A stretch of 24,000 bases of DNA, from NCBI GenBank assembly GCA_016712175.1, contig JADJRQ010000004.1:47843-71842 (forward strand), given 5' to 3'. A program made the translations under genes and the position numbers. The DNA is from Solirubrobacterales bacterium (GTDB lineage: Bacteria > Actinomycetota > Thermoleophilia > Solirubrobacterales > 70-9). The notes beneath the pieces were generated by a model that was not told the origin of the DNA, searched no databases, and saw only the letters and a list, made by a program, of their open reading frames with translations. This document shows, piece by piece, positions 1 to 16,880 of the stretch. Numbering within the stretch: the first letter of the stretch is position 1; each line of letters begins with the position of its first letter.

Positions 1-2170
1 CCACAGGGATCAGGATCACGTTGTAGGCGAATGCCCAGAACAGGTTCTGCTTGATCGTACGCAGGGTCCTTCTCGACAGCCGGATCGCGTCGGCCGCCGC
101 GCGGAGGTCACCCGAGACGAGAGTCAGGTCGGAAGCTTCAATCGCCACATCGGCTCCAGTTCCGATCGACAGACCGAGGTCCGCCCTGGCAAGCGCGGGT
201 GCGTCATTGACCCCGTCGCCAACCATCGCGACAACCCTGCCCTCCGACTGGAGTTCACGGATCACCTCTGCCTTTTCTCCCGGCAAAACCTCTGCGACTA
301 CCCGGTCGATACCGACCTGGGTCGCGACCGCCCTCGCCGTGGACCCGTTGTCGCCGGTCAGGAGCACAGGCTCGAGACCCAGTTCTTTCAGCCGGCAGAC
401 CGCTTCGGCGCTCGACTCCTTGACGGAGTCGGCAACCAGGAACACAGCCTGGGCCCCTCCGTTCCAGGCTGCGACGATCGCCGTCCTTCCTTCGTTTTCT
501 GCGGACTCGCGCGCAGCCTCGAGTTCAGGCGAAATTGACTTGCCCCGTTCAGACAGGAAAGAAGACCTGCCGACCGTCAGCACCTTGCCGTCAACTTCAC
601 CCTCCACCCCGAGTCCGGCGTGATTTGAGAAGGATTCGATTCCGGGCAGGTCAACGAAGCGGGTTCGGGCCTCCTGGGCAATCGCCCGCGCGATCGGATG
701 TTCGGATCCATCCTCGAGTGCGCCGACCAGCCGCAATGCCTCGTCCTGACCGACTCCGTCGGCGGTCACGATGTCCGACAGGCCCATCCGACCGGTGGTC
801 ACGGTGCCGGTCTTGTCGAGCACGATCGTGTCCACCTGGCGGGTTGACTCGAGGACCTCGGGTCCTTTGATGAGGAGACCGATCTGGGCGCCACGGCCGG
901 TTCCGACAAGCAAGGCAATCGGGGTGGCGAGTCCCAGGGCACAGGGGCAGGCGATGATCAGCACGGCGACTGCGGCCGTGATCGCGTACGAGGTACCTGC
1001 GTCAGCAGCAAGCCAGAATCCGAGGGTGGCGACCGACAGGACGATCACCACAGGCACGAACACTGCGGAGATCCGGTCAGCAAGCCGTTGGACCGGAGCC
1101 TTGCCGGACTGGGCATCGGTGACGAGCCGGGCGATCCTCGCAAGTGCGGTGTCATCGCCGACCCGCGTCGCCCGGACAAGCAGGCGCCCACCCGAATTGA
1201 TGGTTGCGCCGGTAACCGGATCGCCCGGAGCGACCTCAACCGGTACCGATTCACCGGTCAGCATGGATTGGTCCACCGCGGAATGTCCTTCGACAACCTC
1301 TCCGTCCGTGGCGATCTTTTCGCCGGGACGCACCACGAAAGTCTGACCGGATTTGAGTTCACTGATCGGGATCAGTCTCTCCGCACCGCCCTCGATAACC
1401 GCTACTTCCTTCGCTCCGAGTTCAAGCAGAGCCTTGAGGGCAGCACCGGCGTTCCGCTTGGCCCGGGTCTCGAAGTAACGTCCGGCGAGGATAAAGGTGA
1501 TGACGATGGCGGCCACTTCGAAGTAAACGTCGGACCCGCCCGCACCCTGCTCTGGAATCAGCTGGAAGGTCATCGTCATCCCGGGTTCGCCGGCCCCGAG
1601 GAAGAAGAGAGCGGCAACGGACCAGAAGTAGGCGGTCAGTGTCCCCAGAGAAATCAGAGTGTCCATCGTCGCGGAGCCGTGCCGCAGGTTCTGCCACGTC
1701 GCCCGGTGGAACGGCAAGGCGCACCAGAAGACCACCGGGGTTGCCAGGACGAGGCTGACCCACTGCCAGTACTCGAACTGGAGCGCGGGAATCATCGCCA
1801 TGAAGAGAACCGGAACGGACAGGATCACCGAGACGGTCAGGCGCTGTCGCCAGTCCCGCAACTCCGGGTCGACGTGGCCGTGACTTTCGTCTTCTGACGC
1901 TTGGTCACGGTCGCCTTCAGGCAGACTTGCCCGGTAGCCGGCCGCCTCGACAGCGGCCACGAGGTCGCTGGGGGCAACCGTCTCCGGATCGAACCTGACG
2001 GTCGCGCTTTCGGTGGCGAAGTTGACGGTGGCGTCGACGCCTTCGAGCTCATTCAGGTTGCGTTCGACGCGACTGACACAGGATGCACAAGTCATTCCCG
2101 CCACGGGCAGGTCGAACGACTCCTCCGAAGCTTCGGAACTCACTGGCTTCGATTTCGTTGTGTCGCGCAT
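1..2170 (-). CDS. copA: Copper-translocating P1B-1-type ATPase (CopA-like); C-terminal end cut by the window edge
   Basis: Absent from the ORF track because it runs off base 1. Reverse-strand reading from ATG 2170..2168 (AAGGA 6 nt upstream) gives [39 protein letters not shown]... It contains the HMA motif GMTCASC (Met codon 2095..2093), the CPC motif in [13 protein letters not shown] (TGC 949..947), the phosphorylation site DKTGTVT (GAC 817..815) and the hinge [12 protein letters not shown] (232..203). All are in phase with the ATG (offsets divisible by 3). The + strand ORFs 51..1897 are antisense shadows. Confidence 0.93.
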
Positions 2171-2192
2171 CTCGATCCTTACCTTGAGCTTC

Positions 2193-2205
2193 TACCCACA
2201 GGGTA
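2193..2205. promoter_or_regulatory. Candidate CsoR operator, inverted repeat TACCC-aca-GGGTA
   Basis: Perfect 5+5 bp inverted repeat with a 3-nt spacer in the 79-bp copA/DUF4396 divergent intergenic region. It has the same arms as the second site, whose centre is 34 bp away. A CsoR-family repressor is encoded in the adjacent operon. Assignment to CsoR is inference. Confidence 0.5.
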
Positions 2206-2225
2206 CTTTCAAGGACACCGTAGCA

Positions 2226-2240
2226 TACCCCTGGGGGGTA
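2226..2240. promoter_or_regulatory. Candidate CsoR operator, inverted repeat TACCCC-tgg-GGGGTA
   Basis: Perfect 6+6 bp G/C-tract inverted repeat, 10 nt upstream of ATG 2250. It resembles the TACCC...GGGTA pseudo-palindromes I recall for CsoR operators in Firmicutes and Actinobacteria. Confidence 0.55.
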
Positions 2241-2249
2241 CCTGATACG

Positions 2250-2849
2250 ATGCCCGGCATGGCCGCAAACCAGGAGCATGCGATCGCAACATCCCACGCA
2301 GGGCACGAGATGCCGACCGGAGGCCGAGAGCTAACCACCCTTTCCGTGAGCGCCACCCTCCACTGTCTGACCGGATGCGCACTTGGCGAGATCGCCGGCA
2401 TGGCCATTGGAACTGCCCTCGGCTTCTCCAACCCTGGGACCGTGATCCTCTCGATCGTGCTCGCGTTCGCCTTCGGCTATAGCCTGACCAGCCTGCCCCT
2501 GCTCAAGTCCGGCCTCGCGCTGGCTACTGTCATCCCGATTGCCCTGGCCTCCGACACCTTTTCGATCGCGACCATGGAAGTGGTCGACAACCTGATCATG
2601 GTCGTCGTACCGGGAGCCTTGAATGCAGGACTGAACAGCATTCTCTTCTGGGGCTCGCTGTCGTTCGCGCTGGCGGTGGCGTTCGTCTTCGCCGTTCCGG
2701 TCAACCGTTGGCTGATCGCTCGCGGGAAAGGACACACCGCGGTTCACAAGACAGGGGTCCACGGCGGTCCCCCGGTCCGCCTGGTCGGAGCAATTACCAT
2801 CACGGCCTTCCTTTTCGGATCCGCGGTTCTACTCATGGAGGTGTTCTAG
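2250..2849 (+). CDS. DUF4396-like polytopic membrane protein with Cys/His metal motif
   Basis: ORF-track frame 2013..2849 trimmed to ATG 2250, because the upstream part overlaps the copA start and the operators. It has a His/Met-rich N-terminus (HAIATSHAGHEMP), the motif HCLTGCALGE that I associate with DUF4396, and several hydrophobic helices. Its stop TAG abuts the csoR ATG (TAGATG). Confidence 0.75.
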   Translation: MPGMAANQEHAIATSHAGHEMPTGGRELTTLSVSATLHCLTGCALGEIAGMAIGTALGFSNPGTVILSIVLAFAFGYSLTSLPLLKSGLALATVIPIALASDTFSIATMEVVDNLIMVVVPGALNAGLNSILFWGSLSFALAVAFVFAVPVNRWLIARGKGHTAVHKTGVHGGPPVRLVGAITITAFLFGSAVLLMEVF

Positions 2850-3143
2850 ATGACAACCGAATCAGCAACACACGGATACACCGCCGACAAGGACGCGCTC
2901 CTGAAGCGCCTGCGCCGAATCGAAGGTCAGGTTCGAGGAGTGGAGAAGATGGTCGACGAAGACCGCTACTGCATCGACATCGTCACCCAGATTTCAGCCG
3001 CCCAGGCCGCCCTCGACAAGGTTGCGCTTGGCTTGCTCGAAGACCACACCCGCCACTGCGTGATCGGCGGCGAGGCCGGGCTTCAGGAAGAACGGACTGA
3101 AGAACTCATGGGTGCCGTGCGCCGGTTGGTCAAGCACGGCTAG
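2850..3143 (+). CDS. csoR: CsoR/RcnR-family (DUF156) copper-sensing transcriptional repressor
   Basis: 97 aa with the typical LLKRLRRIEGQVRGVEKM start. The Cu(I) ligand pattern Cys...His-x3-Cys is present (RYCIDI ... HTRHC). The gene is translationally coupled to the upstream membrane protein and divergent from copA. Confidence 0.9.
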   Translation: MTTESATHGYTADKDALLKRLRRIEGQVRGVEKMVDEDRYCIDIVTQISAAQAALDKVALGLLEDHTRHCVIGGEAGLQEERTEELMGAVRRLVKHG

Positions 3144-3167
3144 TTGCTGCGGCAGGGCGAAGAAAAG

Positions 3168-4325
3168 CTAGCGCCTGATCCTGAATCGTTTCTTTGCCGG
3201 CGTCGGATCGGTCTTTCCGGCGGAGGTTGCCTTCACCCGGAACCTGTGTTTCCCGGACTTCAGGTGCCTGTAGGCCCGCGGTGATTTGCATTTTCTGAAC
3301 GGCCGCCGGTCGAGGCTGCAGCGGAACCTGGAACCAGCGACGCTGGACTTGAACCGGAACTTCGCCTTGCGCTTGGCTCTCTTCACCACCGACTTCCGGA
3401 TCCTGGTCTGCGGGACCACCTTGGGTTTGGGACTTTCCACCGTAGGCCGGGGACTTTCGGGAACCTTGGATAGCACCTTCTCGGTCTGCTCCGCCATCTT
3501 CGCTTCGCCCAGGGCGTTCGGGTGGACGATCACCGGATTGGTCCCGGCCAGGACAGGCTCGACCCAGCGGGTACCGATCGGCTTGCAGGCATCGTGTCCT
3601 TCGGAAACCCCGTTCAGGTTCACGAACGTGACCCCGGTCGCTGACGCCGCGCGACGGACCGCATCGTTCAAGGTTGTCTGGAGCAACCGGAGGTAAGGAA
3701 CGTCCCCCGTTGCAATGGGCATCGTCGGGAAGCAGCCGCCGGTCTTCGGTGTGATCCAGGGGTAACTCAGGATCGCGACCCTCGCCTTCGGCGACTTCTT
3801 CCGCACGGCATCAAGGGCTTTGACGAGTGATGGATAGGTCGTGTTCCGGATCGTGTCTTCGAACGAACTTCCGTATTTGTCCTTGCAGGGGCTGCCCGTT
3901 CCGAGAGTCGACAGGCCGGAGGAACCGCAGTAGAGGATGGCGTTGATGAAGACACCGCTGTCGTTGCCACCGATGGTCATCGTTACCAGCTCGGTATCGG
4001 GCTTGAGTGCGTCGAGCTGGGGCTTCATCCCGGGGTATTGGGGTTTGAAGAAGTGGGTCGTGTCGGCCGCACCGCAGGTCACGTCGTCAAGCTTTGCGCC
4101 GATCTTCTTCGCCAGCACCTGAGGGTAGTTCTGAGTAGAACGGAGGCACTGGGGAGCCGTCGGATCGACGGGAAGGACTCCGGAAGCTGCGCTGTACGAG
4201 TCGCCAAGTGCGACGTACTTGACGGGCGTGGACGCAGCATTTGCCGGCCCACTTGCCAGGACGAACCCGGAACAGGCAGCAACCAGGGCGATCAAACCGG
4301 CAACTCGACGACTTCGGAACTTCAT
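3168..4325 (-). CDS. Secreted SGNH/GDSL hydrolase (Streptomyces-type lipase/esterase) with a Lys/Arg-rich C-terminal domain
   Basis: 385-aa ORF with AGGAGG 4 nt upstream of ATG 4325. It has a signal peptide (MKFRSRRVAGLIALVAACSG..ANA) and SGNH blocks GDSYS, TIGGND and VHPN. The last ~100 aa are a Pro-rich linker plus a very basic domain. Confidence 0.85.
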   Translation of the reverse strand: MKFRSRRVAGLIALVAACSGFVLASGPANAASTPVKYVALGDSYSAASGVLPVDPTAPQCLRSTQNYPQVLAKKIGAKLDDVTCGAADTTHFFKPQYPGMKPQLDALKPDTELVTMTIGGNDSGVFINAILYCGSSGLSTLGTGSPCKDKYGSSFEDTIRNTTYPSLVKALDAVRKKSPKARVAILSYPWITPKTGGCFPTMPIATGDVPYLRLLQTTLNDAVRRAASATGVTFVNLNGVSEGHDACKPIGTRWVEPVLAGTNPVIVHPNALGEAKMAEQTEKVLSKVPESPRPTVESPKPKVVPQTRIRKSVVKRAKRKAKFRFKSSVAGSRFRCSLDRRPFRKCKSPRAYRHLKSGKHRFRVKATSAGKTDPTPAKKRFRIRR

Positions 4326-4343
4326 CCATCCTCCTAAGGAAAT

Positions 4344-4360
4344 AGAAACAAGGTGTTTCT
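4344..4360. promoter_or_regulatory. AT-rich perfect inverted repeat AGAAACA-agg-TGTTTCT between the heliorhodopsin stop and the SGNH start
   Basis: 7-bp arms and a 3-nt loop, inside the only markedly AT-rich spacer of this region (4326..4410), 19 nt upstream of the SGNH start codon. It could be a weak terminator for the upstream gene or an operator for the SGNH gene. Function not determinable from sequence. Confidence 0.3.
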
Positions 4361-4410
4361 GACTCCTGGTTCAATACCCGCACGACGGATGAATCAACCA
4401 TCCCGGCAGG

Positions 4411-5184
4411 TCAGGATCCGGCCAGGGCACCTGAATACACCTGGATCGCCAGTGCGGTTTTCGCGGTGATACTCAGCCAGACGTAAACCTTCTCGGAGAA
4501 CAGCGGGTCCTTCCAGCGGCCGCGCCTGCGGTACGAGAGCCACATGTTGACCGCGAAGCAGTTGAAGAGAATGAACAGGGACACGAAGATCCCATAGACG
4601 AAGCCGGGAATGCCCCGGCCGCTGGTCTCGGCGAGGATGAACTGGATGATGATCGCGATCCAGGGAACCGCGCCGATCACGCAGCCAAGAATGAAAGGCG
4701 TCCAGTCGACGCGCTCCCGATCCAGATTGGCGCGCTCCATCACCAGGCCAAAGAAGATCATCGCCGCATTGGCGCCGAAGATGGCGATCAGGGCAGTTAC
4801 GTCCTTCACCCCGGTCAGCATCGCGATCAGCACAATCATCACGGACGCACTGATCGAGTACTCGTACCACCGGAAAGGGTTCTGTCCTCGCTCTACGTTG
4901 GACTCGTACCGTCCCCGGGCGACCGTTCCGACGACCAGGTGATCGACGGCCGCGAGCGCGAGGAAAAGGGCGACGATCAGATCGATCCGGAGATCAAATA
5001 TCTGGGTGCTCCCGTAGTCACCGGCGCCGGGTGGGCCGACCAGAAACGACCCGACCACAGGAAGGCTGACCGGTTCGGCCAGAACCAGGAGCACCACCAC
5101 CTGCACGGTGAAGAAAACAGCTGCGAACCGGTTCAGGCGACTGAGCCGGGCGAGAGAGCTTCGGGGTTCAGACTTGTCTGCCAA
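4411..5184 (-). CDS. Heliorhodopsin (7-TM retinal-binding protein, inverted topology)
   Basis: 257-aa ORF with TTG start 5184 (AGGG 5 nt upstream) and seven hydrophobic helices. It resembles heliorhodopsin 48C12 as I recall it, block by block. FLVGPPGAG matches YLNGPPGTT. NPFRWYEYSISASVMIVLIA matches NIFRWVEYSLSSSVMIVLIA and carries the counter-ion Glu. AIFGANAAMIFFG matches AIFGVNASMILFG. GCVIGAVPWIA matches GCIAGIVPWIG. IPGFVYGIFVSLFILFNCFA matches VPGFVYGIIISLFLFFNSFA. WLSITAKTALAIQVYSGAL matches VLSLVAKSALAWQIFSGTL and carries the Schiff-base Lys. Confidence 0.9.
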   Translation of the reverse strand: MADKSEPRSSLARLSRLNRFAAVFFTVQVVVLLVLAEPVSLPVVGSFLVGPPGAGDYGSTQIFDLRIDLIVALFLALAAVDHLVVGTVARGRYESNVERGQNPFRWYEYSISASVMIVLIAMLTGVKDVTALIAIFGANAAMIFFGLVMERANLDRERVDWTPFILGCVIGAVPWIAIIIQFILAETSGRGIPGFVYGIFVSLFILFNCFAVNMWLSYRRRGRWKDPLFSEKVYVWLSITAKTALAIQVYSGALAGS

Positions 5185-5218
5185 GGGACCCTGACACTAC
5201 AACCCGGCGTTGCCCGGG

Positions 5219-5620
5219 CTACTGACCTTCATTCACTTCGGAGGCCCGCTCGCGCACGTGGGCCTTTTCATCGATCGTCAACGCGCCCGGGTGTCCCCGC
5301 CCGGGCCAGGGCGTCAGCAGGAGCAGAAAACGCGAATCCTCATGCGCGTCAACGCGGTGACGCTCCGAGGGTTCAAACTCAACGAACAGGCCGGGTCCGC
5401 CAGAAACGCTTTCCACTGGTGATGACGCGAGTGCCGTGACTTCAAGTTCGCCCTGGACCACGACCAGCCAGGCCCGCTCATGCACTTCGTGGTCTTCCAT
5501 GCTTTCCCCGGCCGGCAAGTCGACGACGATCGCCCGCGCATCGTCGGTCGATTCAAGGATCTCGGGCTTCCGGGGCTGCGTATCCAGTTCGTTGATCTTC
5601 CAGGTCTTCACGACACCCAC
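5219..5620 (-). CDS. Small cupin-fold protein (putative)
   Basis: 133-aa ORF. Cupin-like motif regions are GESMEDHEVHERAWLVVVQGELEV and GLFVEFEPSERHRV. The start is GTG 5620 or GTG 5611 and no strong RBS is visible. It ends 34 nt upstream of the heliorhodopsin start on the same strand. Family call from pattern only. Confidence 0.6.
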   Translation of the reverse strand: MGVVKTWKINELDTQPRKPEILESTDDARAIVVDLPAGESMEDHEVHERAWLVVVQGELEVTALASSPVESVSGGPGLFVEFEPSERHRVDAHEDSRFLLLLTPWPGRGHPGALTIDEKAHVRERASEVNEGQ

Positions 5621-5699
5621 TCAGGTTCGGGGACGATTTCGCTTCTCAGACTAGTGGACGTCAGCCGGTCATTCTCGTCGAAGGGACGCACTTTCTCCC

Positions 5700-7580
5700 T
5701 TGCCCGGTGATAATTCGGCTGTGACGCCGACGGACCTCCTCGACAAAGACCGGCATTTCCTGCTCTCGCTGTCCATTTTCGCTGCGATCGTGGTCGGTGG
5801 AGCCTTTTCAATCTCGTGGAACGGCTCGGTTGCTGATCTGATCTGGGCCGTCGCGATCGTGGTGTCGATCATCCCGCTGACCATGAGCACGACCCGGAGC
5901 CTGCTGAAGGGTGACGTCGGTGTCGACGTCATCGCCCTTCTGGCCATGGCCGGCGCCCTGGCTCTCGGTGAATACCTGGCCGGCGCCGTGGTCGCGTTGA
6001 TGATGTCCGGGGGCGGTGCCCTCGAGGCCTACGCCGACCAGCGGGCCCGGCGGGAGCTGACCATGCTCCTGGAACGGGCGCCACGGGCAGCCCACCGCTA
6101 CCAGAATGACGCGCTCGAGCAGGTAGATGTCGAAGAGGTCGAAGTTGGTGATCTCGTGCTCGTTCGGACCGGCGAGGTTGTTCCGATTGACGGCACCATT
6201 GAGAGCGACGGGGCGATGCTTGACGAATCAACCCTCACCGGAGAACCTTTGCCCGTTCTCAGACACCAAAGGGAATCTGCTCGCAGCGGCATCGTCAACG
6301 CTGGATCTCCATTCGACCTGCGGGCGACACACCGCGCCGAGGACTCCACCTACAGCGCCCTGGTCTCGATCGTTCAGGCCGCCGAGCGCGAGCGCCCTCC
6401 ATTCACCCGGATGGCCGACCGCTACGCCGTCTTCTTTCTTTCCTTCACTGTGTTCCTGTGTGGCGTCGCCTGGCTGGTGAGCGGTGACCCCGTACGTGCG
6501 CTGGCTGTACTTGTAGTGGCAACGCCCTGCCCGCTGATCCTGGCCGCCCCGATTGCGATCGTCGCCGGTCTCTCGCGTGCCGCCAACCGGGGGGTGATCG
6601 TCAAGGGCGGAGGCACCATGGAACAGTTGGCCAATGCCCGGACCATGCTCCTCGACAAGACAGGAACACTCACCCTCGGCACCCCCGAGATCGAATCTGT
6701 CGAGACGATGGAAGGTACGGACCCGGATGAACTGCTGAGACTGGCGGCGTCGCTCGAACAGGCCTCGGCGCATGTTCTTGCCGAGGCGATGGTCAGGCAG
6801 GTGGCAATCCGCGGCGTGCTGCTCGAATCTCCGTCCGGCGTGGAGGAGGAGCCGGGTGGTGGAATCGACGGTCTTGTCGGCGGATATCGGGTCACGCTCG
6901 GTAGCCGGAGATATCTGAACGCCACGGGGATTCCGGTTGACCACGAAGGCCTCGACCGGCTGGAAGTGACGAGTGGACTCGGACAGGCCCGGATTGCCGT
7001 CGCCGTCGACGGCAAGTTGGCCGGAGTGATCCTGATGGGCGACCGGCTTCGCGACGACGCACCGACCCTGGTCCAGGACCTGCATTCGGAGGGGCTCACC
7101 GAAGTCGCGATGTTGACCGGCGACCGGGCCGAGATTGCCGAGGAGGTCGGGAAGCTGGCTGGCCTGGACCGGATTTACTCCGACCAGTCACCAGAGGACA
7201 AACTGGACGTTGTCCGCGAGTTCCTCGGGCGCCCCGAAGCCCGGCCGGTCGTGATGGTTGGTGATGGAGTCAACGACGCCCCGGCGATCGCTTCTGCCGA
7301 TGTCGGCATTGCGCTGGGAGCGGCGGGCGCGACAGTTTCCTCGCAAACGGCTGACGCCGTCATCGTGGTAAATCGCATCGACCGACTATTGGATGTATTG
7401 AAGATCAGCCGGAGAACGATGAGGATCGCCCGTCAAAGCGTCCTCGCCGGAATGGGCCTTAGCATCGCGGCCATGTTCTTTGCAGCTGCCGGATTCATCG
7501 AACCGGTTCAAGGCGCTTTGCTGCAGGAGGTAATCGACGTCGCCGTAATCCTCAATGCGCTTCGTGCACTGAAGGCCTGA
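5700..7580 (+). CDS. Heavy-metal P1B-type ATPase with a PCP transmembrane motif (P1B-5-like), no N-terminal metal-binding domain
   Basis: 626-aa ORF with LTGEPLP (actuator), ATPCPLILAAP (PCP instead of CPC), [22 protein letters not shown] and a last TM containing LLQEVIDV. No HMA domain, His-rich tail or hemerythrin domain is visible. Start is TTG 5700 or GTG 5721. Confidence 0.88.
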   Translation: MPGDNSAVTPTDLLDKDRHFLLSLSIFAAIVVGGAFSISWNGSVADLIWAVAIVVSIIPLTMSTTRSLLKGDVGVDVIALLAMAGALALGEYLAGAVVALMMSGGGALEAYADQRARRELTMLLERAPRAAHRYQNDALEQVDVEEVEVGDLVLVRTGEVVPIDGTIESDGAMLDESTLTGEPLPVLRHQRESARSGIVNAGSPFDLRATHRAEDSTYSALVSIVQAAERERPPFTRMADRYAVFFLSFTVFLCGVAWLVSGDPVRALAVLVVATPCPLILAAPIAIVAGLSRAANRGVIVKGGGTMEQLANARTMLLDKTGTLTLGTPEIESVETMEGTDPDELLRLAASLEQASAHVLAEAMVRQVAIRGVLLESPSGVEEEPGGGIDGLVGGYRVTLGSRRYLNATGIPVDHEGLDRLEVTSGLGQARIAVAVDGKLAGVILMGDRLRDDAPTLVQDLHSEGLTEVAMLTGDRAEIAEEVGKLAGLDRIYSDQSPEDKLDVVREFLGRPEARPVVMVGDGVNDAPAIASADVGIALGAAGATVSSQTADAVIVVNRIDRLLDVLKISRRTMRIARQSVLAGMGLSIAAMFFAAAGFIEPVQGALLQEVIDVAVILNALRALKA

Positions 7581-7642: not shown

Positions 7643-8761
7643 CTAGTAACGAAGAGTTGCGAGCACACCGCCTGCTTCGGCCAATGCCGGAACCTCTTCG
7701 GCCGAAGCTGAACTCATCCGGGCATCCGTGCGAAGTGCGACTTCGACCAGGGCTTCCTGGATCGACGCCTCCCCGGCATCTTCGATCGCCTGAATGGCAC
7801 CATCGGAGAGGATTTCGCTCTTGGTTTCGAGGTAGGGATCGAAAATCACGTGGCCGACCCGCCCTTCACTCAAAGCAAGAAGGGTCTCATCCGGGCCACC
7901 GGCGCCGCGATCGGCCGCTTTCACCCGGGCGAGCGCCTGATCGGCAACTGTGCCGACTGATTCGCGCCAGTCCTCGCGCAGTCGCTCGTCGAGATGCTCG
8001 GCGACGTCGGCCGACGTATGGTCGATCAGATTGATCGGAACGATTTCGATCAGGGATTCACCCAGCGGATCGGGCATCGAGCTTTCGAAATGGGATCCCA
8101 GCTCGCCGTCGGCGGCGACGATCAACCGGTCGTACCCGAGCTTGGAAACGGCGTCGGCGATGTCCGCAATCGAATCCGCCTGGAACTGGTTGCGCCACTC
8201 CTTGACCCGATCCATGAAGTTCACGATGTGCGCGCGAGTATCGTCGTCATGGGTGCCGAAATCGTCTTCCCTGTCCGAGGGCTCAATGTCTTCTGCGGTG
8301 CCGTCGAACCACTCGAGCAGCCGGATGTTGTCATTGCTCATCAAGACGATGCCGGTGCGCTGACCACGGTCAACTACGTCGACGATTGGCCAGACAACCG
8401 GGCCTGAATCGAAGGTGACAAAGCCGTCCCGGACGGGAATCTGGAAGGTGTGGAGTTCGTCGATCAAACCGTCTTCACTCAGGAAGCAGGCGATGCTCCG
8501 TCCCCTCTCATGGGCCGGCGTCTCCAGGATGCGGCGCTCGGCTTCTTCAGCCAGCCGCTGGGCCACCTTGTGGGATTCGTGGCCGGGATCGATCGCTTCG
8601 AGGGCATCCCTGATCCCGTTCTTCAGGCTGATCATCCAACCCGGGTGCTCGCCACTGTTCTCCGGTTCACGGGGATCGGTCCGGCAGAAAACCGAAAGAA
8701 CCTTTCCATCGGACTGCCGGTCAACCGTGTCTCGGAGCTGCTGAAGTCTGAAATCGTTCAT
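7643..8761 (-). CDS. Bacterial eRF1/Pelota-fold (baeRF / VLRF1-like) protein
   Basis: ORF-track 7643..8845 trimmed to ATG 8761, since MNDFRLQQLRDTV...KVLSVFCRTDP looks like the family N-terminus. The C-terminal third (ETLLALSEGRVGHVIFDP ... EALVEVALRTDARMSSASAEEVPALAEAGGVLATLRY) has the pattern of eRF1/Pelota domain 3. No GGQ or GGWSQ-type loop was seen. Call from pattern memory only. Confidence 0.55.
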   Translation of the reverse strand: MNDFRLQQLRDTVDRQSDGKVLSVFCRTDPREPENSGEHPGWMISLKNGIRDALEAIDPGHESHKVAQRLAEEAERRILETPAHERGRSIACFLSEDGLIDELHTFQIPVRDGFVTFDSGPVVWPIVDVVDRGQRTGIVLMSNDNIRLLEWFDGTAEDIEPSDREDDFGTHDDDTRAHIVNFMDRVKEWRNQFQADSIADIADAVSKLGYDRLIVAADGELGSHFESSMPDPLGESLIEIVPINLIDHTSADVAEHLDERLREDWRESVGTVADQALARVKAADRGAGGPDETLLALSEGRVGHVIFDPYLETKSEILSDGAIQAIEDAGEASIQEALVEVALRTDARMSSASAEEVPALAEAGGVLATLRY

Positions 8762-8893
8762 CGAAGGATCAAACCAGAACCGTGCCTGCGGGGCACTTCC
8801 CAAGCATCTCGAACCGATCGAGGGCCAATATGGTCGAAGATTCATGGATCGAGTCGAAACGGGCCGGGACCCGAATCCAGAAGGAGGTGACTG

Positions 8894-9505
8894 ATGGCAG
8901 TACTTTCCGCGGCGCTCATCGCTGCCTTCCTCCTGATTGTCTTTCCGCTCCGGTCGCTTCGCCGAAGGCTTCAGTTCGGCTCCGCCGCGCGAGCCACCTA
9001 CGGTCGGACCCGCCCACCGCTCTGGTGGGTGGCAGACCTGCTTTTCCTCGCCGGATTCGGACTTGTGCTGGCAGGGCCGATCTTGCAGATCGTGACCGAG
9101 ACGACGCTTCTGTTCGATCCGGTACCGGTCGTTTCCGTGATCGCCTTGACGGGGGTCGTGCTCGCCACGGGCCTGTCGGTCTGGTCCCAGGAGACCATGG
9201 GCGCCGCCTGGCGTCCCGACATCGGCCCGGCCGATCAGGCCGCGCTCGTGGCCACAGGTCCCTTCAGGTTCGTTCGAAATCCGAACTATGTGGCAATGCT
9301 GGCGGCAGCCTTCTGGGCCACATTGCTCGCTCCGACCCTCATCGGATTCGCAGGGGTGTTCGTCCTGCTCGTCAGCCTGGTTCTTACATCCAGGGCAGAA
9401 GAGCCTCTATTGATTCAGACCTACGGAGCGCCCTACCGGGAGTACGCCGCCAGGACAGGACGCTTTTTCCCGAGGATCGGCCTGATTCACGAAGACAGGT
9501 CGTGA
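8894..9505 (+). CDS. ICMT/PEMT-type membrane methyltransferase family protein
   Basis: 203-aa ORF with GGAGG 6 nt upstream of the ATG. It has multiple TM helices and the C-terminal motif GPFRFVRNPNY ... SRAEEPLLIQTYGAPYREY, typical of isoprenylcysteine carboxyl / phospholipid methyltransferases. Confidence 0.8.
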   Translation: MAVLSAALIAAFLLIVFPLRSLRRRLQFGSAARATYGRTRPPLWWVADLLFLAGFGLVLAGPILQIVTETTLLFDPVPVVSVIALTGVVLATGLSVWSQETMGAAWRPDIGPADQAALVATGPFRFVRNPNYVAMLAAAFWATLLAPTLIGFAGVFVLLVSLVLTSRAEEPLLIQTYGAPYREYAARTGRFFPRIGLIHEDRS

Positions 9506-9786
9506 CCTTTGCAGGCGGTGGGATCGGCCGGATCCTCGTCCAGCTTTTCGATTACCCGATCGGCAACCCCGGGCGCCGGTCGAAAGCTGACGGACTTCAG
9601 AACGTGGACCGTCTGTTTCAGCGACTCCAGCAGGCGATGGCAACTTTCGCATTCATCGACGTGGCGCCTGAGCCGGCTTCGCTCCTCCGGACCGAGCTGA
9701 CCATCGATCTCATCGGACAGATGTGACCTTGTCCAGCGGTGGTCGAGCAGGAACCCGGGCATCCTGATCAGCTTCCTGAAGGTCAT
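9487..9786 (-). CDS. Soluble zinc-binding anti-sigma factor (zf-HC2 / ZAS type)
   Basis: ATG 9786..9784 shares one base with the sigma-gene stop (TGATG). About 99 aa with no hydrophobic segment and the H-x3-C-x2-C motif (HVDECESCH). An extra Cys/His lies near the C-terminus (TACKGH). Confidence 0.7.
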   Translation of the reverse strand: MTFRKLIRMPGFLLDHRWTRSHLSDEIDGQLGPEERSRLRRHVDECESCHRLLESLKQTVHVLKSVSFRPAPGVADRVIEKLDEDPADPTACKGHDLSS

Positions 9787-10477
9787 CAAACGTCTCCTTC
9801 CACCAGTCCGGAGACCGCCGACCGGACCTTTAGCCGGGCCCGGTGGAGCCGGCTCTTGAAGGCCGCTTCGCCCACCGCCATGATGTCCGCGGCTTCGGCG
9901 GCGGACAACCCGTTCATGTCCCGGAGAACAATCGCCTGCCTCTGACCTGCCGGCAGGTCGGCGACTGCTTCGGAAAGACCTCGGCGTAGCTCCGAGATCT
10001 GGGCGCTGCGCGCGGGATCCGCAGTCCCCGAGGCGATGTCCCGGCCCGATTCGTCGTCGATCGAGAACGCCGAGCGCGACCGTCTGGTCGTCAGTTGAGC
10101 CCCCGGCGATTCGCTTCGTTCACACCGATCCGGTAGAGCCAGGTATAGAACTGGGATCGGCCCCGGAAGCTCGCAATCGACTTCCAGGCTCGAAAGAATG
10201 TCTCCTGAACGACCTCTTCGGCCTCATGCCCGGGACCGATCAGACCCGAGACCAGTCCGTAGAGCCGATCGGCGTGGCGCCGAACCAGTTCATCGAATGC
10301 GGCCCGGTCCCCTTCCTGCGCCCTCAGGACGAGCGGATCGTCTGTCTTCTCCCTCACCAAAGGCAGGTTAACAGGCGCCGGACAGCCGATCTTCACCTTC
10401 CTTCGCAGCACTCGCGGCGAAGTCAGGACACCGTCGCCGAACCCCGTGAACTCCCAGTCTGAGATCTCAGCTTTCAC
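9786..10477 (-). pseudogene. ECF (group 4) sigma-70 factor with an interrupted reading frame
   Basis: ORF 10091..10477 encodes region 2 (DDPLVLRAQEGDRAAFDELVRRHADRLYGL...ETFFRAWKSIASFRGRSQFYTWLYRIGVNEANRR) and stops at TGA 10093..10091. Region 4 (LPAGQRQAIVLRDMNGLSAAEAADIMAVGEAAFKSRLHRARLKV) continues in the -1 frame to TGA 9788..9786. The frames can be joined at the C5 run 10100..10104 (G5 on the coding strand) if one base is missing. GTG 10477 overlaps the upstream stop (GTGA). Confidence 0.7.
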
Positions 10478-13090: not shown

Positions 13091-13861
13091 TCACCGGACG
13101 CGTCCAGCGCGGTTGGCGGCAGCAAGCGCGAGGACGGCAGGAACCAGAAACAGGAGCGAAAGGGCCGCGGCCACCTCAAAGTCGCTGCCGATGAAAGGGA
13201 GCAACACCACAGGCAGGGTCGGACTTCCACCGGAAATCGCAAGTGAACTGCCGTACTGGCCCCACGACACCAGGAATGCCATCAGTGCTGCGAGAGCAAG
13301 AGTGGGCCGAGTCTCCGGCAGGGTCACCATCAGCAACCTGCGCCAGGGTCCGATCCCCATCGACGAGGCCATCTCTTCCGATAGCCGGAGTCGCCTGCTG
13401 AATCCGGTGGAAAGCACGAGGACCGCGTAAGGGAGCGAGAAGACGATGTGCGCGAGGACCAGACCGGCGACGGAGTCGGTCAGTCCGAGCCGAACGAACC
13501 AGCCGGTCATCCCGGTGCCGATGGCAAACGGTGAAATCAATATCGGGACCGCGAGCAGAAGAACGACCGGCCCGGGGTGGCGCAATCTACGCTCACCGAT
13601 CACCCTGGCAGCTGGCCAGGCCAGAAGAAGCGAAACGGCCGTCACCACGAAAGCGACCAGCAGCGACCGGGTAAGCGCCACCCCCGCCCCGCCACCGGCA
13701 AATCCGTCCCGGAAACCCCGCAGGCCAAACTCCTGCGGGATCAGCGACGGTGCGGTCCAGCTGTCGGCGAACGCCTGAAGCACCAGCACCAAAAAGGGCA
13801 GGGAGAAGGCGAGGACGACCGTCGTTCTCAAGGCCCCACTCATGCGGCCGCTGTTACGCAT
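13091..13861 (-). CDS. ABC transporter permease (second membrane subunit)
   Basis: ORF-track 13091..13906 trimmed to ATG 13861, which overlaps the upstream stop (ATGCGTAA). Six hydrophobic helices and an EAA-loop-like LSEEMASSMGIGPWRRLLMVTLPETRP. Confidence 0.8.
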   Translation of the reverse strand: MRNSGRMSGALRTTVVLAFSLPFLVLVLQAFADSWTAPSLIPQEFGLRGFRDGFAGGGAGVALTRSLLVAFVVTAVSLLLAWPAARVIGERRLRHPGPVVLLLAVPILISPFAIGTGMTGWFVRLGLTDSVAGLVLAHIVFSLPYAVLVLSTGFSRRLRLSEEMASSMGIGPWRRLLMVTLPETRPTLALAALMAFLVSWGQYGSSLAISGGSPTLPVVLLPFIGSDFEVAAALSLLFLVPAVLALAAANRAGRVR

Positions 13862-14687
13862 CCGATCTCCGTTGTCGTGAGGCGAGCGCCAGGATTCCAA
13901 CGGCAAAAGCGATCGAAGCAGCCGCGCCGACGAGTAGTGCCGCTGCCGCCTCGCCGGCCCCCGAGATCGCGTCAGTCTGGGTCACCTCGAGGGCATAGGT
14001 TCCGATCGTCGGCGGATAGTTCGGGCCGACTGCAAGCGGGACCTCGAAAGCGCTGAAGACAAACGCCGTGACGATGATCGATCCGATTCCGAGGGGCACA
14101 CGAACAGCGGGCCAGATGACCCAACGCAACCTGGCCCACCTTCCCATCCCGTGGACAGCAGCCATTTCGTTTTGCTCATCGAGACGACGACCCATTACCG
14201 CCAGAAGCAGCAGCACAAGAAAGGGCGTCTCCTTGAACAGGTAAACCAGCACGATGCCGAGTCCGGCCTGATCACGAACCAGATTGATCGGCAGGGAGCC
14301 GAGCACACGATCCGCCAGACCGCCTGGAGCCAGCCAGAGTACGGCCACGACAGCAACGATCATGTGCGGCACGGGGACCGGAAAGGCAGCCGCGGTACGG
14401 GCCGCGCTGGACCCCCTCCTCATTAGCGACGCAATCACCAGGGCGAGGAGCGCCGCGAGGACCGTGGCCATGGCGGTGGTGAGCAAGGTGAAGACCAGCG
14501 CGTCACCGAACACCGGATCGCCGAAAACTGACCGCCAGTTGTCGAGCGACCAGGAGTCGAGCCCACCCCCGAGTGGTGGAGTAAAACTCTGATCGACCGC
14601 CCCTGCCAACGCACCCCCGAACAGCAACACCGTGGCCGTAACCGCCGGCGCCAGCATCGCGGCATTTCGCCAGGCCGGCTGCTTCAC
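13854..14687 (-). CDS. ABC transporter permease (first membrane subunit)
   Basis: 277-aa ORF whose GTG 14687 overlaps the ATPase stop (GTGA). EAA loop is DEQNEMAAVHGMGRWARLRWVIWPAVR. Confidence 0.8.
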   Translation of the reverse strand: MKQPAWRNAAMLAPAVTATVLLFGGALAGAVDQSFTPPLGGGLDSWSLDNWRSVFGDPVFGDALVFTLLTTAMATVLAALLALVIASLMRRGSSAARTAAAFPVPVPHMIVAVVAVLWLAPGGLADRVLGSLPINLVRDQAGLGIVLVYLFKETPFLVLLLLAVMGRRLDEQNEMAAVHGMGRWARLRWVIWPAVRVPLGIGSIIVTAFVFSAFEVPLAVGPNYPPTIGTYALEVTQTDAISGAGEAAAALLVGAAASIAFAVGILALASRQRRSDA

Positions 14688-15697
14688 CCTGCGGGTATCC
14701 GCCAGAGTTGGGGCTCAGGCAGCGAGACTCCGACTTTCGAACCGACTGCCGGTGAGACTTCTGCCTGAACATGCGCTTCGAGCACGCTCTGTTCGCCCTT
14801 CAGGATGACTCGGACGTGAGTGCCCAGATAGACCGCTTCGATGGCGGTCATCTCAACCTGGCCACCGTCGCCGATGACCACTGCTTCAGGGCGGATGGAA
14901 AGAGTCACCTCACCGTCCGGCCCTTCGACTGCGATCTCCGATCCTTCGAAAGCAAGGTGGCCGTCCTTGACCATCCCGTGGATCAGGTTCAATCCGAAGA
15001 AGCGGGCGGTGCGTTCAGTTTGCGGACGCCTGAACATCGATTCCGGGTCGTCGCTCTGCAGGATTGTGCCGGCGATCAGGAGGGCGATGACCTGGCCCAT
15101 CTCGGCAGCCTCGGCCCGGTCGTGGGTGACCGACACCGTCGTGACCCCGCGGTCCTCCTGCAGCTGGAGGATGAGGTCCATCAACGAGGAGCGGCGATTC
15201 GGATCGACCGCCGAGAGCGGTTCATCCAGCAGGAGCAGTTCGGGTTCGGCGCATAGTGCCCTGGCCAGGGCCGCACGCTGTTGTTCGCCGCCGGAAAGGC
15301 CCTTCACGCCTCCTCCGGCGAACTCCCCCAGGCCGACTTCCTCAATCAACTCACGAGCGCGGCTTCGGCGCTCCTTTCGCGGAGTCCGCTGCGCGACAAG
15401 ACTGATGGCCACGTTGTCGAGCAGGTCCAGGTGGTCGAGCAGGCGGGGTTCCTGGAAAACCACCGCACAACCTCGCCGGTGAGCGGGCAGTGCGTCGATC
15501 CTCTTGCCCCCCAGGCTGATCGAGCCCCGGTCGAGATCCTCAAGACCAGCGATCGACCTCAGCAACGTCGTCTTGCCGGCACCGGAGGGACCGACGATCA
15601 CCGTTCTCGATCCCGCCTCGGCTTCGAACGTGAGGTCGTGGAGAATCTCGTCTGATCCCGGCGAGACAGCGATGCCTTCGCATTTCAGTCCCTCTAT
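14684..15697 (-). CDS. ABC transporter ATP-binding protein (PotA/FbpC/YnjD-like with C-terminal TOBE-like region); 5' end unresolved
   Basis: Walker A GPSGAGKTT, signature LSGGEQQRAALARAL, Walker B LLLLDEPLSAVD and H-loop VTHD. The track ORF starts at GTG 15601, directly at Walker A, which is too short. The frame stays open upstream to TGA 15757..15755 and encodes a normal N-terminal strand (IEGLKCEGIAVSPGSDEILHDLTFEAEAGSRTV), but contains no ATG/GTG/TTG. See findings. Confidence 0.8.
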   Translation of the reverse strand: MEGLKCEGIAVSPGSDEILHDLTFEAEAGSRTVIVGPSGAGKTTLLRSIAGLEDLDRGSISLGGKRIDALPAHRRGCAVVFQEPRLLDHLDLLDNVAISLVAQRTPRKERRSRARELIEEVGLGEFAGGGVKGLSGGEQQRAALARALCAEPELLLLDEPLSAVDPNRRSSLMDLILQLQEDRGVTTVSVTHDRAEAAEMGQVIALLIAGTILQSDDPESMFRRPQTERTARFFGLNLIHGMVKDGHLAFEGSEIAVEGPDGEVTLSIRPEAVVIGDGGQVEMTAIEAVYLGTHVRVILKGEQSVLEAHVQAEVSPAVGSKVGVSLPEPQLWRIPAG

Positions 15698-16880
15698 CGC
15701 TGCACCTGCTGGATCCAGGCATCGTCGATCTTGCTCACTTCGGCTACCGGAAGCTCATTGAGCGGTGTGCCGAGTGACTGAAGGAGGAAAGGGCTTTCGG
15801 TGGGCGCAAGCTTCGCGGCCTGGGCCTCGTCCAACCTGTCCGGATCGAGGACTGAGAGCATTCCGACGATCTTCGGATCCTGCATCCTGGCCTGGATCGA
15901 CGGGTCGAGAAGCAGGTTCGCAACCACCTGGGCCCCTTGGGGACTGGAGGCATTCGCCGGGATAGTCACGAAAGATGCGTTCTGTAGTGCTCCGTCGCCG
16001 ATCAGAAAGGGTCTGGTGGAGTCCGGGAACTGACCCTGGAGGACGGCGTTGTCGATGAAGTTCGAGTTGTAGCTCATCGAAAAATCTACTTTGCCGTTTG
16101 CGAACAGCTGGCTCAGTTCCTGTTCTGACTTCGGCTGAATCTTGCCTTCTGCATACGTCAACGGTTTCAATTCCCTCAGATAGGCCGTAGCCGCTTCCGT
16201 CGAGCCTAGCCGCTGAACCACCTGCCTGACAAAGGCTGAACCGGTGAAGTCGGGTGGGGCCGGATACGCAAACCGGCCCGGGTTCTCTTTCGCATACTCG
16301 AGAAGTTCAGGGAATGAAGAAGGCGGCTCGGATGCAACCTTTTTGTCGTAGGCGAAGACGAATCCCGCCCGCGACCAGGGTGACTCCTGACCATCCACGT
16401 CAACCCCGAAATCCTGTGAAAGAAGGGGCGATTCGGCGTCGGTCAACTCCCGGTTGGGCAGGCCTTCGGCCCAGTCTTTTCGCCACAGGCCGACCTCCTT
16501 GCCGCTGGCGAAGTTCTCGCCGTTGATCCAGATCAGGTCGACGCCGCCGCCACTGCTCTTTCCTGCTCGCTCCTCCGCGACAACCCGTTTCACGGCATCG
16601 GCGGTGTCGGCTATCGGCACCCGGACCAGCCGCACCCCCTCCTTTGAAGCCGCAGGGGTCACCACGTCGTCAACGAAGGCGTTGAACCTGGGATCTCCGC
16701 CATACATCCACCAGCGAACGGTCTGCCCCTGAGCTTCACTGGCGATATCACCGAAGCTCGCTGTGGATTCCGAGAAATCGCCAGACGAGTCGTCAGAACC
16801 ACCCGAACCGCATGCCACGACGGTCACGGCCAGTAGCGCTGCGACGACCAGGCCAAAGTTTTTAGGGCATTCAGTTTCAT
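15694..16880 (-). CDS. ABC transporter substrate-binding lipoprotein (YnjB-like); 5' end frame-shifted
   Basis: The 377-aa track ORF starts at GTG 16827, inside a lipobox (MTVVAC). Its frame is open upstream and reads ..CPKNFGLVVAALLAVTVVACGSGG. ATG 16880..16878 (MKLNALK..) is one base out of phase and the two frames join at the T5 run 16859..16863. The body contains DLIWINGENF and other features I associate with YnjB-type binding proteins. Confidence 0.75.

Follow-up and report, generated by a model that had tools for sequence, protein, structure and literature searches.

Introduction

Heliorhodopsins, a family of retinal photoreceptors, have been known since 2018 and several of their structures have been solved. 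The solved members closest to the protein described here are 48C12, from an actinobacterial fosmid (PDB 6su3, 6su4, 6uh3, 9ljj), and TaHeR, from a Thermoplasmatales archaeon (PDB 6is6, 7u55, 7clj). Light-dependent binding and regulation of a partner has been demonstrated for AbHeR with glutamine synthetase (PMC9529153), for TfHeR with photolyase (PMC9769723) and for OcHeR with the ATP-binding cassette (ABC) exporter OmrDE (PMC11109279), and regulation of these partners runs through loops on the intracellular side that carry positive charge (PMC9529153, PMC11109279, PMC9769723). Ten recurrent groups of heliorhodopsin neighbours have been described: the synthetases of glutamine and of NAD+, photolyase, MerR, TerC, ABC exporter, short-chain dehydrogenase/reductase (SDR), alpha/beta hydrolase, DUF2177 and DUF2238 (PMC11109279). 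Here we describe a heliorhodopsin gene carried by a Solirubrobacterales bacterium (Thermoleophilia, Actinomycetota) on contig JADJRQ010000004.1, within a stretch of 24,000 nucleotides (nt) that was analyzed whole and is referred to as the window; all coordinates are positions in it. An earlier note on this DNA had described heliorhodopsin function as unresolved and its partners as unknown, a view partly outdated by the partners cited above for individual bacterial heliorhodopsins. None of those partner types adjoins the window gene.

Identification of the heliorhodopsin gene

The gene occupies positions 4411..5184 of the minus strand and, according to the open reading frame (ORF) list and its translation, encodes 257 aa plus a stop codon from a TTG start, whilst translation of the plus strand over 4411-5184 is interrupted by many stops. 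Each block that the earlier note had cited occurs in the minus-strand product, where FAAVFFTVQ lies in transmembrane helix (TM) 1, LAAVDHLVV in TM2, RWYEYSISASVMIVLIA in TM3 and SITAKTALAIQVYSG in TM7. The Pfam heliorhodopsin profile PF18761 was matched over its entire length (positions 1-242 of 242) with a score of 293.2 bits against a cutoff of 26.7 (E 1.8e-87), and the NCBIfam equivalog model NF038020 (HeR) with 281.8 bits against a cutoff of 100. The type-1 rhodopsin profile PF01036 scored 19.5 bits, under its gathering score of 24.6. Heliorhodopsins were the only proteins of solved structure whose sequences matched the window protein, namely 48C12 (6su3/6uh3/9ljj; E 1.3e-62 with HMMER), TaHeR (6is6; E 5.4e-57) and, third, the 317-aa heliorhodopsin 9vfc (E 9e-37). 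The earlier note had placed a heliorhodopsin gene of this length at these positions and had claimed a full-length match to 48C12; ORF and profile evidence bears out the first claim and adds the strand, which the note had not given, and the 48C12 alignment bears out the second. The window protein is almost certainly a bona fide heliorhodopsin.

The gene is already known. GenBank protein MBK8295398.1, "MAG: heliorhodopsin HeR [Solirubrobacterales bacterium]" (MAG, metagenome-assembled genome), is 100% identical with the same start, lies on a 224-kb contig and was given its heliorhodopsin name independently by NCBI. Close relatives are numerous. Of the candidates scored in a word-index search, 2693 reached E<=1e-20, and when the representatives of clusters made at 50% identity were searched exhaustively, 3115 clusters were obtained at E<=1e-3, 160 of them at E<=1e-30. 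In species-representative genomes at least 589 heliorhodopsin loci were found, the top locus encoding a protein 73% identical to that of the window; counts for related loci given below refer to the best 80 of these (L001-L080), nearly all of which come from MAGs of Solirubrobacterales or other Thermoleophilia, with some from Acidimicrobiia. The actinobacterial clade to which the window gene belongs is thus very large and for the most part uncultured, and the gene is an ordinary representative of it.

Chromophore site and conserved residues

Residues were compared in an alignment of 199 sequences, in which 119 homologues from databases and 78 ORFs taken from the related loci were joined by 48C12 and the window protein, and in a panel of 150 diverse cluster representatives for which the totals vary from position to position. 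K242 (codon AAA, 4459..4461, minus strand like all codons given here) aligns with the retinal Schiff-base Lys K241 of 48C12 and is invariant (199/199). E108 (4861..4863), corresponding to the Schiff-base counter-ion E107, is likewise present in 199/199 sequences of the clade and in 125 of 136 diverse representatives, and constitutes the single TM3 Glu counter-ion; S238 (48C12 S237, the position of Asp212 in bacteriorhodopsin) is aligned and invariant in the clade. The TM2 His, H82 (48C12 H80), is found in 199/199 sequences and is preceded by D81 (198/198), the two codons spanning 4939..4944. The Lys of the Schiff base, the Glu counter-ion and the TM2 His had been assigned from the sequence by the earlier note, and this assignment is confirmed by the HMMER alignment to 48C12 (K241=K242, E107=E108, H80=H82), as is its observation that the TM1 His of 48C12 is replaced by Phe, since H23 aligns with F25 (5110..5112). 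The polar network seen on the cytoplasmic side of 48C12 is kept (N18, H82, Y93, N102, R105, W106, Y109, S112, E150, E231, S238), and the retinal-pocket residues M116, N139, M142, I143, P174, W175 and F207 are conserved in the 199-sequence alignment. Departures from 48C12 include A78 (codon 4951..4953), at the position of Ser76 in 48C12 and Ser78 in TaHeR, which is Ala in 198/198 sequences of the clade, and I247 (codon ATC, 4444..4446), at the position of 48C12 Trp246, which is Trp in 198/199 of the set.

Predicted fold and membrane topology

An AlphaFold2 model of the window protein, built with 33 homologues, was confident (mean pLDDT 89.5, pTM 0.85) and contained seven helices, with strands 40-48/57-66 of the AB loop paired as a beta-hairpin. 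When this model was compared with the PDB by Foldseek, the top 10 matches were all heliorhodopsins (TM-score 0.87-0.90, root-mean-square deviation (rmsd) 1.8-2.1 A, 40-44% identity), whereas type-1 rhodopsins gave TM-scores of just 0.5-0.66. Fourteen Lys and Arg residues are located in the N-terminus and the BC, DE and FG loops, whereas loops AB, CD and EF together with the C-terminus contain three, and because of this imbalance the positive-inside rule predicts a cytoplasmic N-terminus, the inverted orientation by which the family is defined and which the earlier note had expected. The loops assigned to the cytoplasmic face are very basic, as exemplified by the FG loop YRRRGRWKD. The predicted architecture is that of a seven-TM heliorhodopsin fold with an extracellular AB hairpin and a cytoplasmic N-terminus.

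Substitutions at TM1, beside the counter-ion and at Trp246

The TM1 Phe is common to every relative at >=65% identity. At this position the 199-sequence set contains F 99, H 88, A 4 and L 2, the residue co-varying with Thr (T243 in the window protein) versus Ser at the position of 48C12 S242, and the diverse representatives contain H 76, Y 12, F 11 and L 3, with a residue other than His in 31 of 107 and Phe in approximately 10%. Judged from these alignments, the Phe is a sub-clade character and no singularity, and the His pair would not be a strict requirement of the family. Two published observations bear on its effect: in the H23F variant of 48C12 the photocycle is reported to be slowed although the M state is still reached (PMC9726877), and a natural heliorhodopsin without either His residue is reported to be photoactive, accumulating little M (bioRxiv 10.1101/2021.02.16.431466). 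Given that M is still reached in 48C12 H23F, the likely consequence of F25 is a slower or altered photocycle, not its abolition.

A second signature, A78 together with D81, is clade-wide (198/198 each) and differs from both 48C12 and TaHeR. Ser76 of 48C12, and likewise Ser78 of TaHeR, stabilizes the counter-ion (PMC7049168, PMC9726877); among diverse representatives its position is occupied by Ser in 62 and by Ala in 47 (47/131 for Ala). D81 is a clade-specific intramembrane Asp beside H82 where 48C12 has F79 and TaHeR A81, and the diverse representatives here contain A 51, D 30 and F 17 (30/130 for Asp).

At the Trp246 position the window protein alone deviates in the 199-sequence set, and Trp is found in 113 of 130 diverse representatives. 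In homologues at >=90% identity, which come from assemblies made independently (Logan, JGI, ENA), the residue at the position of I247 is Val. An assembly error as the source of the Ile was considered and rejected: its ATC codon differs from TGG at all 3 bases, and Val was found in these other assemblies of the lineage. The loss of Trp246 is therefore real, and it is specific to this species-level lineage (Ile; Val in the >=90% relatives). Two proposals have been made for the lipid-facing Trp246 of 48C12: that it serves as a signalling 'latch' (PMC7049168), and that a relay running His80...His23...water...Gln26...Trp246 ends with it at the outer side (PMC9726877). Two members of this relay are replaced in the window protein, H23 by F25 and Trp246 by I247. 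An unlikely reading is that the lineage represents a natural double knock-out of the His80-His23-water-Gln26-Trp246 relay on an A78/D81 background, or else a protein re-tuned for a new partner, e.g. the co-oriented cupin encoded next to it (see below). If such a protein still works as a photoreceptor, the outer Trp 'latch' would be dispensable and D81 may have assumed part of the proton-accepting role; the lineage would then offer a ready natural test of competing models of heliorhodopsin signalling.

Proposed mode of action

By analogy with characterized heliorhodopsins, the window protein would bind all-trans-retinal. Light would isomerize the retinal and the Schiff-base proton would pass to a group in the cytoplasmic cavity (E108, H82 and waters) without crossing the membrane. 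A long-lived photoproduct would in turn alter the cytoplasmic face of the protein, and the basic loops on that face would then bind and modulate a partner protein. Since F25 and I247 remove two relay members, any signalling should use the cytoplasmic side only. We consider it somewhat probable that the protein is both a heliorhodopsin and a light-activated regulator of this kind; the regulatory step itself, in which the basic cytoplasmic loops would act on a partner, we put at even chances on the strength of the published pairs.

Several observations weigh against this interpretation. Retinal binding, a photocycle and lack of ion transport are attributed to the window protein by homology, at approximately 43% identity to 48C12, and A78 and D81, lying beside the counter-ion, could alter proton-transfer chemistry beyond what the work on 48C12 and TaHeR covers. 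The window was annotated with Pfam and NCBIfam over every ORF of >=110 aa plus a frame truncated at its edge. No carotenoid or retinal-cleavage gene (crt, blh) was detected by the Pfam scan in the 24 kb, so that the statement of the earlier note to this effect holds for all the ORFs scanned; such an absence is typical, blh being rare both near heliorhodopsins and in heliorhodopsin-only genomes (bioRxiv 10.1101/2021.02.16.431466). None of the ten recurrent neighbour classes of PMC11109279 adjoins the window gene, with no Pfam match to them within approximately 8 kb, and the sole ABC system in the window is a binding-protein-dependent importer (13091-16827, by Pfam/NCBIfam) 8 kb away. Finally, when ORFs within +-6 kb of the related heliorhodopsin genes were clustered de novo with a filter for reading frame based on GC content at third codon positions (GC3), no neighbour family was present in more than 12 of the 80 loci, and because of this the partner-regulation step is without local support.

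Gene neighbourhood and its conservation

The heliorhodopsin gene lies between two genes of the same strand. A 133-aa cupin is encoded 34 nt upstream (5219..5620, minus strand; Cupin_2, 26.9 bits, just below the cutoff of 27.2), and a 385-aa GDSL/SGNH hydrolase begins 85 nt downstream of the heliorhodopsin stop (3168..4325, minus strand; Lipase_GDSL_2, 79 bits). Two features mark the hydrolase, a lipoprotein-like signal peptide (...LVAACSG...) and, at the C-terminus, a tail of approximately 90 aa rich in K and R (...RKSVVKRAKRKAKFRFKSS...KKRFRIRR). A consensus scan of positions 3000-5900 revealed no promoter-like site and no terminator in either gap, although such a scan leaves operon structure in an actinobacterium unsettled. 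Co-transcription of cupin, heliorhodopsin and GDSL genes is possible because the 34- and 85-nt gaps contain no terminator-like hairpin.

This arrangement raises the possibility that heliorhodopsin, cupin and secreted GDSL/SGNH lipase form a lineage-specific light-controlled module, acting for example in membrane-lipid remodelling. In support, the three genes are co-stranded and closely spaced, the order cupin, heliorhodopsin, GDSL (followed by CsoR) is kept in two independent contigs of >=90%-identical relatives, and a role in lipid remodelling has been speculated upon from DegV/DUF2177 neighbours of other heliorhodopsins (bioRxiv 10.1101/2021.02.16.431466). The synteny is, however, restricted to the species level: in a 78%-identical relative the context is wholly different, the heliorhodopsin gene lying between a major facilitator superfamily (MFS) transporter and an SDR/purEK/P-II/DabA block. 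When all 24 window proteins were compared by tblastn with the 80 related loci, no recurrent neighbour emerged, with cupin, CsoR and DUF4396 each matched in 0/80 and the P-type ATPase in 1/80 (L038, 58% identical and 423 nt downstream of its heliorhodopsin). For the GDSL hydrolase just partial matches of approximately 55 aa were obtained in these loci, none adjoining the heliorhodopsin gene and all due to the K/R-rich tail alone. Neither cupin nor GDSL hydrolase is among the groups of PMC11109279, and with its signal peptide the lipase would act outside the cell, opposite the putative signalling face of the heliorhodopsin. A module of this kind is therefore very unlikely, and cupin and GDSL hydrolase are lineage-specific neighbours only. 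Because synteny is confined to the species level the order of neighbouring genes is uninformative, and because neighbours are not conserved the window is of no help on what heliorhodopsins regulate; nor does it give any pointer to what this particular one regulates.

Recurrent neighbours were seen in other parts of the clade. In a sub-clade of Solirubrobacterales MAGs (L005-L010, L015, L017) a photolyase-related gene (PF04244, DPRP; 191 bits) lies approximately 0.6 kb downstream of the heliorhodopsin gene on the same strand, followed by genes for an SDR, a PALP enzyme and an AhpC/TSA peroxiredoxin, an arrangement not found in the window. A MerR regulator with a B12-binding domain (CarH/LitR-like) is encoded near heliorhodopsin in 8 loci (e.g. 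L028, 7778-8665). The photolyase-related, SDR and MerR/B12 neighbours fit the published recurrent classes of PMC11109279, and none of them is encoded in the window. In these high-GC loci (L071 and others) the heliorhodopsin gene is overlapped, on either strand, by long shadow ORFs in alternative frames, because of which naive longest-ORF calling gives spurious conserved neighbours; in one locus an N-masked stretch yields a false 984-aa 'fusion' ORF.

Improbable alternatives: ion transport and loss of photoreceptor function

The window protein might alternatively be a light-driven or light-gated ion (proton) transporter resembling the viral V2HeR3. Proton transport is reported for one viral heliorhodopsin (PMC12873467), and the clade to which the window protein belongs has an extra ionizable intramembrane residue, D81, next to H82. 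D81 nevertheless belongs to the cytoplasmic half, where it adjoins the existing cavity, and no added polar residues were found on the outer half. The hydrophobic extracellular half that explains the absence of transport in 48C12 (PMC7049168) is kept (L203, F207, M116, F74 and others), and neither 48C12 nor TaHeR, the closest solved relatives, pumps ions. Together these features make transport by the window protein most improbable.

That the protein is no working photoreceptor, being either an apo-opsin without chromophore supply, as the absence of blh and crt from the 24 kb and the rarity of blh in heliorhodopsin-only genomes might suggest, or a product of decay following loss of H23 and of the Trp246 missing only from this lineage, is barely plausible given an intact ORF with all retinal-pocket and Schiff-base residues conserved, relatives at >=90% identity that show conservative substitutions at the same length as if under purifying selection, and the possibility, argued for other actinobacteria, that retinal is scavenged or made by another route (bioRxiv 10.1101/2021.02.16.431466).

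Other genes in the window

The block of GDSL hydrolase, heliorhodopsin and cupin genes is set within a metal-homeostasis neighbourhood (2-7580). At the left a CopA-like P1B ATPase with an HMA domain (GMTCASC) occupies positions 2-2098 of the minus strand and runs off the edge (699 codons; HMA 60 bits, E1-E2_ATPase 184 bits). Its frame, cut by the end of the window, was skipped by the ORF lister, and plus-strand ORFs at 51-623, 771-1346 and 1088-1897 are antisense shadows of it with no Pfam match. Between this ATPase and the GDSL gene are a DUF4396 gene and a gene for a CsoR/RicR-like repressor, on the plus strand, and to the right of the cupin gene, also on the plus strand, is a second heavy-metal P1B ATPase, which has no HMA domain (TIGR01525, 515 bits). 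Apart from the P-type ATPase match at L038, this setting is not conserved.

Beyond this neighbourhood a 400-aa baeRF family 10 protein is encoded at 7643-8845 on the minus strand (51 bits); it also matches the MSMEG_1130-family ribosome hibernation factor model below threshold (131.6 bits against a cutoff of 480). A PEMT/ICMT-like methyltransferase gene lies to its right. An extracytoplasmic function (ECF) sigma factor gene at 9789-10477 of the minus strand is apparently split by a frameshift, with region 2 in 10091-10477 and region 4 in an overlapping other frame at 9789-10199, and is followed by an anti-sigma zf-HC2 frame (9490-10119, minus strand); the split reflects either a real pseudogene or an indel in the MAG assembly. 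Further right are genes for DedA, a CDP-alcohol transferase and a radical-SAM enzyme, followed by the ABC importer mentioned above, a pyridine-nucleotide disulfide oxidoreductase, a universal stress protein (USP), DUF3179, a CHASE2-cyclase and an NHL-repeat protein.

Significance

As a discovery the gene matters little: the family is known and structurally characterized, an identical protein already bears the name and close relatives number in the thousands. The small by-products of the analysis are a sub-clade in Solirubrobacterales with Phe in place of His23 (F25/T243), a clade-wide Ala78/Asp81 signature and one lineage without Trp246. These variants represent cheap targets for spectroscopy directed at the published models of proton transfer and signal relay.

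Comparison with known systems

48C12 matches the window protein over its full length at approximately 43-44% identity, and the predicted fold superimposes on it with a TM-score of 0.90 and an rmsd of 1.8 A. Residues of 48C12 kept in the window protein are K241, E107, H80, N16, Q26, Y92, N101, R104, W105, Y108, S111, M115, N138, E149, P172, W173, F206, E230 and S237, and the two proteins are alike in their AB hairpin and positive-inside pattern, in the case of the window protein by prediction. They differ at H23 (F25 in the window protein), S76 (A78), F79 (D81), S112 (A113), Q213 (M214), Y226 (P227), S242 (T243) and W246 (I247), and also in that 48C12 is experimentally characterized whilst the window protein is known from its sequence and a model. 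TaHeR structures are the best structural matches (TM-score 0.87-0.90, 40-42% identity); TaHeR shares with the window protein the TM6 motif 'FNCFA.NM' and a Met where 48C12 has Q213, but is archaeal, retains His23, Ser78 and the Trp equivalent to Trp246, and has Ala in place of D81.

AbHeR, TfHeR and OcHeR belong to the same family and have similarly basic intracellular loops, although the genes of their partners do not adjoin the window gene. In the Dehalococcoidia protein HULAa30F3 (bioRxiv 10.1101/2021.02.16.431466) the TM1 His is likewise replaced by a hydrophobic residue with pigment and photocycle retained; this protein lacks both His residues (Leu/Leu), whereas the window protein retains the TM2 His, H82. 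With type-1 rhodopsins such as bacteriorhodopsin, sensory rhodopsin II and proteorhodopsin the window protein has in common seven TM helices and a TM7 Lys. It differs from them in its predicted opposite orientation in the membrane, in having no DTD/DTE-type motif and in the lack of an adjacent transducer gene, no MCP/HAMP or ASRT-like transducer gene having been found in the window.

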